Source: Escherichia phage GEP001. Taken from it: a stretch of 64,000 nt of DNA. The notes under the pieces are model-generated. The model was given only the letters and a program-made list of their open reading frames with translations. It did no database searches and was not told the DNA's origin. The position numbers and the translations under genes are program-made. Shown here piece after piece: positions 1-4,011 of the stretch. Location of the stretch: the sequence record PV173775; one strand, 5' to 3'. Position 1 is the stretch's first letter, and each line of letters starts with the position of its first letter.

Positions 1-38
1 CGCGACGTTATCGCTCGTACCTTTACTGAGAGTCTGTA

Positions 39-260
39 ATGGCAAAGATAATTATTGAAGGTTCTGAAGATGTGCTAAATGCTTTCGCCGAATGGTTTAG
101 TAATTCAGGCGAACAACAATTTAACGAAGCATGGAACATGGGTGATATTAATGGAATTTATCCTACTACAGAAATTTCTGTTCAGGGATATGGCATTCAT
201 GAACCTATTCGTTTAGTTGAATACGATTTATGTACTGGTGAGGAAGTCAAATATGATTGA
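39..260 (+). CDS. hypothetical small protein (73 aa)
   Basis: ATG with GAGAG upstream; stop overlaps next start (ATGATTGA); operon context. Confidence 0.5.
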   Translation: MAKIIIEGSEDVLNAFAEWFSNSGEQQFNEAWNMGDINGIYPTTEISVQGYGIHEPIRLVEYDLCTGEEVKYD

Positions 261-519
261 AGATATTAAAGGTTATAAGCCGCACACTGAAGAGAAAATC
301 GGTAAAGTAAATGCTATTAAAGACGCTGAAGTTCGTTTAGGACTTATCTTTGATGCTTTATACGATGAATTTTGGGAAGCATTTGATAGCTGTGAAGATG
401 ATGAACTCGCAAAGAATTATGCTGAAAGTCTCGATCAGTTAACTATTGCTAAAACGAAACTCAAAGAAGCCAGTATGTGGGCTTGTCGTGCAGTGTTCCA
501 ACCAGAGGAAAAATATTAA
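253..519 (+). CDS. small protein (88 aa), candidate Vs.4/Acb2-like anti-CBASS sponge by position only
   Basis: ATG 253 after GAGGAAG; two genes upstream of regB where T4 has vs.4; synteny and size only. Confidence 0.45.
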
Positions 520-797
520 TGGCTCAATTAAGCGCAGGGTTTGGTTATGAGTATTATACTGCCCCTCGTCGTGTATCTGTTGCTCCTAAGAAAATTCAAA
601 GTCTTGATGACTTCCAAGAAGTAGTCCGTAAAGCTTTCCAGGACTACGCACGTTATCTTAAAGAAGATTCACAGGACTGTCTCGAAGAAGATGAAATTGC
701 TTACTATGAGCAGCGTCTTGAACAGCTTAAAAACCTACATGAGGTTCGTGCAGAAGTTTCAAAGTCTATGAATAAATTGATTAGATTTAAAGAATAA
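519..797 (+). CDS. hypothetical protein (92 aa)
   Basis: ATG overlapping previous stop (TAATG), GAGGAAAA SD; immediately upstream of regB promoter. Confidence 0.5.
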
Positions 798-799
798 TT

Positions 800-829
800 G
801 TTTACTTTTCCTCTTGACTGTGGTATAAT
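800..829 (+). promoter_or_regulatory. T4-type early promoter (regB)
   Basis: GTTTAC 800-805, 18-nt spacer, TGTGGTATAAT ending 829. Confidence 0.6.
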
Positions 830-856: not shown

Positions 857-1318
857 ATGACTATCAACACTGAAGTTTTTATCCGTCGAAATAAGCTTCG
901 TCGTCACTTTGAGTCGGAGTTTCGTCAAATTAACAATGAGATTCGTGAGGCATCAAAAGCAGCAGGGGTCTCATCGTTTCATCTAAAATATTCTCAGCAT
1001 CTTCTTGATCGTGCAATTCAACGGGAGATTGATGAGACATACGTTTTTGAATTATTCCACAAAATAAAAGACCATGTTTTAGAAGTTAATGAATTCCTGA
1101 GTATGCCTCCGCGTCCTGACATTGACGAGGATTTTATTGATGGGGTTGAATATCGTCCTGGGCGTTTAGAAATCACAGATGGAAATCTTTGGCTTGGATT
1201 TACAGTTTGTAAACCTAATGCGAAGTTCAAAGACCCGTCGCTTCAATGTAGGATGGCAATTATCAACAGTCGTCGTTTACCAGGAAAGGCTTCTAAAGCA
1301 GTAATTAAAACTCAATGA
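857..1318 (+). CDS. regB: RegB site-specific endoribonuclease
   Basis: 153 aa protein matching T4 RegB in length and sequence as recalled; AAGAGGAG SD; early promoter upstream. Confidence 0.85.
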   Translation: MTINTEVFIRRNKLRRHFESEFRQINNEIREASKAAGVSSFHLKYSQHLLDRAIQREIDETYVFELFHKIKDHVLEVNEFLSMPPRPDIDEDFIDGVEYRPGRLEITDGNLWLGFTVCKPNAKFKDPSLQCRMAIINSRRLPGKASKAVIKTQ

Positions 1319-1871: not shown

Positions 1872-2205
1872 AATTTTGGTTTTATGTATAGGATTAATTT
1901 CATTTTCTGCGTTAGCAAATACATCATATACTGAAATTAGAGAGTATGTAAACCGTACTGCCGCGGATTATTGCGGGAAAAATAAAGCATGCCAAGCTGA
2001 ATTTGCGCAGAAATTAATATATGCATATAAAGACGGAGAAAGAGATAAATCAAGCAGATACAAGAACGATACTTTATTAAAACGATATGCTAAAAAGTGG
2101 AATACCTTAGAATGTTCAGTTGCGGAGGAGAAAGATAAAGCCGCTTGTCATTCAATGGTTGACCGTTTGGTAGATTCTTATAATCGAGGATTGAGTACTA
2201 GATGA
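1864..2205 (+). CDS. hypothetical secreted protein (113 aa)
   Basis: ATG overlapping upstream stop; hydrophobic N-terminal signal-like segment. Confidence 0.55.
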   Translation: MTKILVLCIGLISFSALANTSYTEIREYVNRTAADYCGKNKACQAEFAQKLIYAYKDGERDKSSRYKNDTLLKRYAKKWNTLECSVAEEKDKAACHSMVDRLVDSYNRGLSTR

Positions 2206-2681
2206 TTGTAAAATATATCAAGGGCGATATTGTCGCCCTATTTCTTCAAGGTAATATTATTGCGCACGGATGCAACTGCTTCCACACAATGGGCTCTGGT
2301 GTAGCGGGTCAATTAGCAAGAGCCTATCCCAAAATTTTAGAAATAGATAAAACCACTACCGAGTACGGTTCTCGTGATAAATTAGGCGATATGTCTATTG
2401 TTTTTAAACATAATCCTACAGGATTTGGTATATGCTATAACCTGTATACGCAATACGAACCGGGTCCTAATCTTGATTATGATGCTTTAGTAAATTGCAT
2501 GATAGAATTAAATCTACAGGCAGAAACCCTTTTGTTTAAACCAGTAATTTATATTCCACGTATAGGTTGTGGTATTGCTGGCGGTGATTGGGATAAGGTT
2601 TCTAAATTAATCGACATGTTTACTCCTGATATTGATTTAATAGTGGTGGATTATGAAAGCACATTACCCGCATCCGTTTGA
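2202..2681 (+). CDS. macro domain protein (ADP-ribose binding/processing)
   Basis: GDI...NIIAHGCNC...GSGVAGQLARAYP pattern typical of macro domains; GAGGA SD; coupled start. Confidence 0.6.
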   Translation: MIVKYIKGDIVALFLQGNIIAHGCNCFHTMGSGVAGQLARAYPKILEIDKTTTEYGSRDKLGDMSIVFKHNPTGFGICYNLYTQYEPGPNLDYDALVNCMIELNLQAETLLFKPVIYIPRIGCGIAGGDWDKVSKLIDMFTPDIDLIVVDYESTLPASV

Positions 2682-3429: not shown

Positions 3430-4011
3430 ATGGCGAGTTTAATTTTTACTTATGCAGCAATGAATGCTGGAAAATCTGCTTCTCTTTTGACTGCTGCGCA
3501 TAATTATAAAGAACGCGGAATGGGTGTATTAGTTCTTAAGCCTGCTATTGATACTCGCGATTCTGTTTGTGAAGTCGTTTCTCGCATTGGAATTAAGCAG
3601 GAAGCGAATATTATTACGGATGATATGGATATTTTTGAGTTCTATAAATGGGCTGAAGCACAAAAAGATATTCATTGTGTATTTGTAGATGAAGCACAGT
3701 TTTTAAAAACTGAACAGGTGCATCAATTAAGCCGAATTGTCGATACATATAATGTTCCTGTTATGGCTTATGGACTAAGGACTGATTTCGCTGGAAAATT
3801 ATTTGAAGGTTCTAAAGAACTTTTGGCTATTGCAGATAAACTTATTGAACTGAAGGCAGTTTGTCATTGCGGTAAAAAAGCGATTATGACAGCTCGATTA
3901 ATGGAAGATGGAACACCAGTTAAAGAAGGTAATCAAATCTGTATTGGTGATGAAATTTATGTTTCTTTGTGTAGAAAACATTGGAATGAATTAACTAAAA
4001 AGCTCGGTTAG
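3430..4011 (+). CDS. tk: thymidine kinase
   Basis: 193 aa; P-loop NAGKSAS; C-terminal CHCG...C zinc motif typical of type II thymidine kinases; matches T4 Tk. Confidence 0.95.
   Translation: MASLIFTYAAMNAGKSASLLTAAHNYKERGMGVLVLKPAIDTRDSVCEVVSRIGIKQEANIITDDMDIFEFYKWAEAQKDIHCVFVDEAQFLKTEQVHQLSRIVDTYNVPVMAYGLRTDFAGKLFEGSKELLAIADKLIELKAVCHCGKKAIMTARLMEDGTPVKEGNQICIGDEIYVSLCRKHWNELTKKLG

Follow-up and report, generated by a model that had tools for sequence, protein, structure and literature searches.

The gene at positions 253-519 (plus strand) of the DNA analyzed here, a 64,000-nt stretch of Escherichia phage GEP001 (PV173775; hereafter the window), is very probably a functional ortholog of vs.4 of phage T4, which encodes the early sponge Acb2; its activity is assigned by homology. 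The gene, its homology, its conserved residues, its fold and its gene order were established directly in this analysis. A sequence-only reading of the window had proposed from synteny that an 88-aa open reading frame (ORF) two genes upstream of regB corresponds to T4 vs.4/acb2. The ORF is indeed located there, with vs.3 lying in between, and the correspondence is borne out by 84 of 88 identical residues, by the Pfam family PF24729, by the retention of functional residues and by a gene order shared with T4.

Direct comparison of the two genes revealed that the product is 95.5% identical (84/88) to T4 Vs.4/Acb2 across all 88 residues, which is the alignment that the earlier reading had proposed as a check. 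A full-length match was obtained to the crystallized T4 protein in the PDB (7UQ2, 'Vs.4'; E = 1.7e-53), and PF24729 (Acb2/Tad1 hairpin) matched residues 7-83 with 71.2 bits (E = 8.2e-20), against a curated cut-off of 27 bits for this family. The product also matched PHROG 717 (E = 6.3e-32), the group from which Vs.4 homologs were gathered previously (Jenson et al., 2023; PMC10097602), whereas the alignment with the Acb2 of Pseudomonas phage PaMx33 (8IXZ and 8H2J) found by phmmer, although full-length (residues 4-85), was weak (E = 0.047-0.048). NCBIfam and PADLOC contain no model for the Vs.4 family and therefore neither support nor contradict the assignment. A tblastn search identified relatives in 1231 phage records, with an identity of at least 99% in 63 records; the match to 7UQ2 together with these 1231 records indicates that vs.4 is not a chance ORF. 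The exact 88-aa protein is already public (for example as vs.4 of RB14) and occurs on 142 contigs. Because the gene and its family have been published, along with structure, ligands and role, and this very allele is in the databases, what is identified here is already known.

Over its first 4 kb, the window consists of closely packed small genes on the plus strand, as judged from the ORF list. The features relevant to this study are as follows.

1-39, plus strand: 3′ end of vs.6, a GrcA-like glycyl-radical cofactor gene truncated at the window edge.
39-260, plus strand: vs.5, 73 aa, a conserved Tevenvirinae protein (PHROG 1986).
241-246, plus strand: GAGGAA, a Shine-Dalgarno-like sequence 6 nt before the vs.4 ATG and within the end of vs.5 (read from the sequence; putative function).
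253-519, plus strand: vs.4/acb2, 88 aa, a predicted cyclic-dinucleotide sponge (anti-CBASS protein 2; PDB 7UQ2, PF24729 and PHROG 717).
382-408, plus strand: vs.4 codons 44-52, a hairpin-tip patch with all four replacements relative to T4 (codon comparison).
519-797, plus strand: vs.3/tadIV-1, 92 aa from its ATG, a predicted N7-cADPR sponge (anti-type IV Thoeris; PDB 9WIW and T4 Vs.3).
801-829, plus strand: promoter-like TTTACT-17 nt-TATAAT with extended TG, before regB (consensus scan, 10/12 matches).
857-1318, plus strand: regB endoribonuclease, 153 aa, the synteny anchor (Pfam REGB_T4, E = 1.4e-68; 152/153 residues identical to T4 RegB).
3430-4011, plus strand: 193-aa ORF, the counterpart of T4 tk by position (ORF list and gene order).

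The genes run on one strand in the order vs.6-vs.5-vs.4-vs.3-regB-vs.1-vs-tk.4 and then on to tk, which is the order in T4; regB is followed by an SLT-domain gene, a 113-aa gene and a macro-domain gene according to the ORF list, Pfam and the T4 gene order. Positions 1-900 are 97% identical at the nucleotide level to the T4 reference (NC_000866). With positions 1-1400 as the query, most of the length is covered in 538 records; the best 25 of these 538 belong to phages of Escherichia, Shigella, Yersinia and Citrobacter and are 97.5-98% identical. Phages such as REP4, HY01 and KNP5 share about 96-97% identity with positions 1-25000. The alignment with T4 and the common gene order therefore identify the window as a Tequatrovirus (T4-like) early region of which the plus strand is transcribed. 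The same gene order around vs.4 is annotated in related phages, and one record names the gene 'anti-CBASS protein 2'.

The ORF of vs.4 comprises 88 codons from the ATG at 253 to the TAA at 517-519. The flanking ORFs (39-260 and 519-797) had been described as tightly coupled to it, and the junctions agree with this description: the end of vs.5, with its TGA stop, and the start of vs.4 overlap by 8 nt (ATGATTGA, 253-260), and vs.4 and vs.3 have a TAATG in common at 517-521, as do vs.6 and vs.5 at 37-41 (with the vs.6 TAA at 37-39). The fragment of vs.6 reads in frame ...RDVIARTFTESL*, with a matching C-terminus in homologs of two other records (L005 and L007), and both the alignment and the annotation of T4 place vs.6 directly 5′ of vs.5. 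A longer version of vs.4 starting at TTG 217 (100 aa), as given by the ORF lister, was rejected because this codon lies inside vs.5, whereas ATG 253 is preceded, 6 bases upstream, by GAGGAA, which is identical in T4, and matches the first residue of the crystallized T4 protein (residues 1-88).

All six residues that contact cGAMP in T4 Vs.4 (Y8, H11, K23, S74, R79 and F82) and all five published hexamer-interface residues (L29, F33, A66, A73 and A77) are present in the window protein, as is T12. Ten of these, Y8, H11, K23, L29, A66, A73, S74, A77, R79 and F82, are invariant in an alignment of eight homologs (the window, T4, two Phapecoctavirus phages, ST2, a Jiaodavirus, a Karamvirus and Klebsiella phage phi1_146010) in which the lowest identity with the window protein is 54-57%; T12 and F33 are kept in the window but are not invariant among the eight. 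In the T4 protein, 3′,3′-cGAMP is bound with a Kd of about 30 nM by a hexamer holding three cGAMP molecules, each of which lies between a pair of chains, where it stacks on Y8 and F82 and is held in place by Y8, H11, K23 and R79 (PMC10097602). Mutations of Y8 or F82, or of L29, A66, A73 and A77, abolished the protection of CapV from cGAMP, F33A destabilized the hexamer, and T12I, S74N and A77I were recovered genetically (PMC10097602). Knockout of T4 vs.4 lowered the titre about 50-fold on CBASS with inactive Cap2 (PMC10097602).

A single-sequence AF2 model of Vs.4 (pLDDT 87.3) consists of a helix at residues 10-45, a loop or turn at 46-49 and a second helix at 50-81. Foldseek searches of the PDB with this model returned three chains of 7UQ2 at the top (E about 2e-9 to 1e-8; TM 0.73-0.74), followed by PaMx33 Acb2 (8H2X and 8H2J; probability 0.99-1.00, TM about 0.70, rmsd 2.5-3.1 Å). 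Superposition of the monomer on 7UQ2 gave a TM of 0.74 with an rmsd of about 6 Å, which is not a tight structural match, and such a loose fit would be expected when one chain of an interlocked hexamer is modeled by itself. PaMx33 Acb2 (p26; 8H2J, 8H2X and 8IXZ) thus belongs to the same family and fold, with Y8, K23 and R79 aligned, but is only about 21-24% identical to the window protein. Its mechanism as a hexameric cyclic-dinucleotide sponge would apply to the window protein as well.

Different from the T4 protein, PaMx33 Acb2 has a second pocket for cA3 and cAAG that involves R67, T74 and a kink in alpha2 (PMC10312549). T4-type Acb2 carries D61 at the R67 position, has no kink and binds no trinucleotides: cyclic dinucleotides are bound (cGAMP Kd about 84 nM) and cA3 and cAAG are not, which has been ascribed to an unkinked alpha2 and to clashes with Y37, A57, L60, D61 and T64, and a D61R mutant still does not bind cA3 or cAAG (PMC10312549). 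In the window protein the positions equivalent to PaMx33 R67 and T74 are D61 and T68, as in T4, rather than the residues of the trinucleotide pocket, and Y37, A57, L60, D61, T64 and T68, the residues associated with trinucleotide exclusion, are all kept. Because D61 and T68 are as in T4 Acb2, we assign the product by its sequence to the T4 dinucleotide-only type of the Acb2 family and not to the broad-spectrum subtype, represented by PaMx33 and JBD67, which has pockets for both di- and trinucleotides. By analogy with T4 Acb2 it should not bind cyclic trinucleotides, so that of the cyclic di- and trinucleotides suggested as ligands by the earlier reading, the trinucleotide part would not apply. 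T4 Acb2 also binds 2′,3′-c-di-AMP, a decoy (Kd about 62 nM), and this capture activates Panoptes (PMC12657218).

The window and T4 versions of vs.4 differ in 14 codons, 10 by synonymous changes and four by replacements (L44F, N46S, C50D and F52L, from T4 to the window), and all four replacements fall within nine codons. Codons 44-53 contain these four together with three synonymous changes, and the remaining 78 codons contain seven synonymous changes and no replacement; vs.4 is under purifying selection outside the tip. The AF2 model places the four replaced positions around the hairpin turn, and the ligand residues, close to the termini, at the other end of the hairpin. This central stretch is the most variable part of the family alignment, where homologs differ by gaps of 2 to 12 residues. 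In a set made up of T4 and twelve public Tequatrovirus alleles, the tip is the main polymorphic patch, and two major haplotypes can be distinguished: F44/S46/D50/L52, found in the window and RB14, and L44/N46/C50/F52, the T4 type (ALDNCEDCEF). Among the public alleles read, the RB14 type is no rarer than the T4 type. Positions 44 and 52 covary among the Tequatrovirus alleles (F/L, L/F or W/L), which looks like volume-conserving compensatory packing across the hairpin turn.

It may be asked whether the product, while being Acb2, carries a tip haplotype that alters its ligand range, hexamer stability, decoy capture or contact with a partner protein. The clustering of the replacements is not easily attributed to chance, as four randomly placed changes span nine codons or fewer in about 0.2% of permutation trials (p about 0.002); the same patch is polymorphic within Tequatrovirus and rich in indels across genera, and the Acb2 family does diversify in its ligands, with some members binding 3′cADPR (PMC12393519). 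The patch lies far from the published ligand residues, at the other tip of the hairpin, which argues against such an effect, as does the nature of the known specificity switches of the family, which reside in N- or C-terminal elements or the alpha2 kink and not in the tip (PMC10312549; PMC12393519). The mutations by which T4 escaped Panoptes likewise abolished function or altered the pocket (F82C, for example) and did not affect the tip (PMC12657218), and the exchange of F/L for L/F at positions 44 and 52 would resemble neutral drift of a tolerant loop. We therefore find an altered function of the tip haplotype highly improbable, and read the patch as mutation-tolerant and not as a functional switch, with a small effect on assembly being conceivable.

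The second alternative concerns the neighbors of vs.4, beginning with vs.3. The product of vs.3 in the window is identical to T4 Vs.3 at 90 of 92 positions (97.8%) and matches PDB 9WIW (E = 4.9e-38), which is the apo form of TadIV-1 from phage UPEC07 (PMC13243611). As a dimer, T4 Vs.3 (TadIV-1) acts as a sponge for the type IV Thoeris signal N7-cADPR; deletion of vs.3 sensitizes T4, and among Vs.3-Vs.8 it is the sole gene active against this system (PMC13243611). Long forms of TadIV-1 (~90 aa) with a flexible N-terminal loop are active, whereas short forms are inactive, and R17, R18 and K24 matter in T4 Vs.3 (PMC13243611). The window protein is of the long N-terminal form (~90 aa) and has R17, R18 and K24. 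By its sequence it is assignable to TadIV-1, published in 2026, with N7-cADPR binding predicted by homology. Like Acb2, TadIV-1 is a small sponge with a helical hairpin that captures an immune signal, but it differs in its unrelated sequence family, its dimeric rather than hexameric state, its N7-cADPR ligand and its flexible N-terminal-loop pocket (PMC13243611). Two genes with predicted functions as sponges against two different immune signals thus adjoin with a one-base overlap.

The 9WIW entry and several GenBank records call the Vs.3 homolog an 'endoribonuclease', a label that appears to have been carried over from the adjoining regB, and some of the mislabeled records start the gene at an upstream GTG (477; 106 aa). 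Two further matches of Vs.3 were dismissed, namely a weak, sub-threshold similarity to Cas11f in NCBIfam/PADLOC (E = 0.0044), which was judged a chance hit on a helical protein, and Pfam Tex_N (18.6 bits, below the cut-off of 32).

The other neighbor, vs.5, encodes a protein that matches PHROG 1986 (E = 7e-44), a group of unknown function, and has tblastn hits in 988 phage records. No Pfam, NCBIfam or PADLOC match was found for Vs.5, and a PDB search gave only a hit at chance level. A search for homologs yielded 11 close relatives, and the AF2 model built on this shallow alignment was poor (pLDDT 58.9), with a strand at residues 2-7, a helix at 10-33 and no structure modeled for the remainder. 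In the searched library of literature, no paper was found that mentions vs.5 along with both regB and phage T4. Nearly all of the 988 records contain, as the window does, an intact 73-codon vs.5 frame with an end that overlaps the vs.4 ATG. Different from these, the T4 reference vs.5 (record L001, 5382-5558, minus strand) has a 1-nt deletion relative to the window (GCCGAA in the window, G-CGAG in T4), and the annotated T4 Vs.5 is therefore truncated to 58 aa with an out-of-frame tail; this could be a laboratory-strain mutation or an error of the reference.

In an exact-sequence look-up, Vs.4 (88 aa) and Vs.5 (73 aa) were placed in one '90% identity' cluster. A similarity between the two proteins, considered because of this shared label, was rejected (BLASTP E = 0.36), and the shared cluster is probably a clustering artefact tied to the overlapping genes.

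The vs.5 gene is widely conserved and lies directly upstream of two immune-signal sponge genes. It could encode a third counter-defence protein in a vs.5-vs.4-vs.3 cassette. We consider it unlikely that at least one of two statements holds, namely that vs.5 is a third counter-defence protein, or that the tip haplotypes of vs.4 are kept by selection or differ functionally. The earlier suggestion that the flanking ORFs are co-functional with vs.4 stands in part: vs.3 does encode a sponge, TadIV-1, but for a different signal, and vs.5 has no known function. A stronger version, in which vs.5, vs.4 and vs.3 make up a single functional unit, either as a hetero-complex or as a single pathway, would fit with the overlapping stop and start codons that join vs.6, vs.5, vs.4 and vs.3 and with the fact that vs.4 and vs.3 both encode small helical immune-signal sponges. 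Such overlaps are, however, the norm among small early genes throughout the window, and the proteins act singly: T4 Vs.4 by itself binds cGAMP and blocks CapV in vitro (PMC10097602), and Vs.3 by itself inhibits type IV Thoeris (PMC13243611). The genes also separate in relatives, as vs.4 of Klebsiella phage JY1 is followed by regB and is accompanied neither by vs.3 nor by vs.5, and acb2 of Phapecoctavirus phages stands beside unrelated small ORFs. These published single-gene activities and the loss of adjacency in relatives led us to reject the one-unit reading, which we regard as extremely improbable.

The cassette of vs genes is modular, as observed in several relatives. In phages of the genus Phapecoctavirus (Stephanstirmvirinae), Acb2 homologs (record L003, 1495-1764; record L008, 1495-1770) are 67-77% identical to the window protein, with N- and C-terminal thirds almost identical to it and a different hairpin tip. 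This pattern, in phages of a different subfamily of myoviruses, suggests horizontal transfer. The 72-aa ORF downstream of acb2 in these phages is not Vs.3-like. In Klebsiella phage JY1 (record L005, 1495-2292) the order is vs.6-vs.4-regB. Phage ST2 (record L004, 1740-1955) has only a short, 71-aa Vs.3 homolog, and TadIV-1 proteins of this short class have been reported to be inactive against type IV Thoeris (PMC13243611).

With respect to expression, promoter-like sites were no commoner in a promoter and terminator scan than in shuffled sequence. The sole credible promoter-like site is that at 801-829, before regB, as T4 has the identical sequence there. This site, a putative T4-type early promoter, bounds the vs.6-vs.3 block on its downstream side. 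A terminator-like hairpin on the minus strand inside vs.4 (484-467) was treated as a chance occurrence, and no Rfam family matched positions 1-2500 on either strand at E values up to 1. The RegB target motif GGAG was absent from the plus strand of positions 1-846. Across the whole window this motif occurs 216 times, against 215.7 expected, being neither enriched nor depleted, and its absence from 1-846 therefore allows no conclusion. GGAG is present in the Shine-Dalgarno sequence of regB itself (847-850), as it is in T4. The regB mRNA is known to undergo self-cleavage, and both the GGAG at 847-850 and the site at 801-829 are consistent with this.

Farther downstream, a homolog of tk.4 (2202-2681, plus strand) matched the Pfam family Macro (E = 2.5e-8), and the T4 gene is annotated as a phosphatase with an A1pp motif. 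Since macro domains act on ADP-ribose derivatives, it is conceivable that tk.4 has a counter-defence role against ADP-ribose-based signaling or modification.

The hexamer, the ligand binding and the anti-CBASS effect proposed for the window protein are transferred from the 95.5%-identical T4 protein and would operate as follows. The gene vs.4 would be expressed early in infection as part of the overlapping run vs.6-vs.5-vs.4-vs.3. Its 88-residue chains are predicted to fold into two-helix hairpins, six of which would interlock into a hexamer as in T4. Three pockets, each formed between paired chains, may each accommodate one molecule of 3′,3′-cGAMP or a related cyclic dinucleotide, which would be clamped by Y8 and F82 and contacted by the polar residues H11, K23, S74 and R79. 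Because the signal would be captured with nanomolar affinity but left intact, CBASS effectors (CapV among them) would stay inactive, and the phage cycle could then be completed. Binding of the decoy 2′,3′-c-di-AMP, by contrast, would expose the phage to Panoptes-type systems.

These results add little new biology, as the family, structure, ligands and CBASS role were published in 2023. Their practical value lies in annotation, because most of the phage records listed still call vs.4 a 'hypothetical protein' and many mislabel the adjoining TadIV-1 gene, some as an endoribonuclease. If the tip haplotypes do differ in function, they might tune hexamer stability or decoy capture and thereby the sensitivity to Panoptes-type guards. 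For phages carrying this locus, vs.4 predicts resistance to cGAMP-type CBASS where the signal output is limiting, and vs.3 predicts resistance to type IV Thoeris; the same locus also predicts vulnerability to decoy systems of the Panoptes type, by which nucleotide sponges are sensed.
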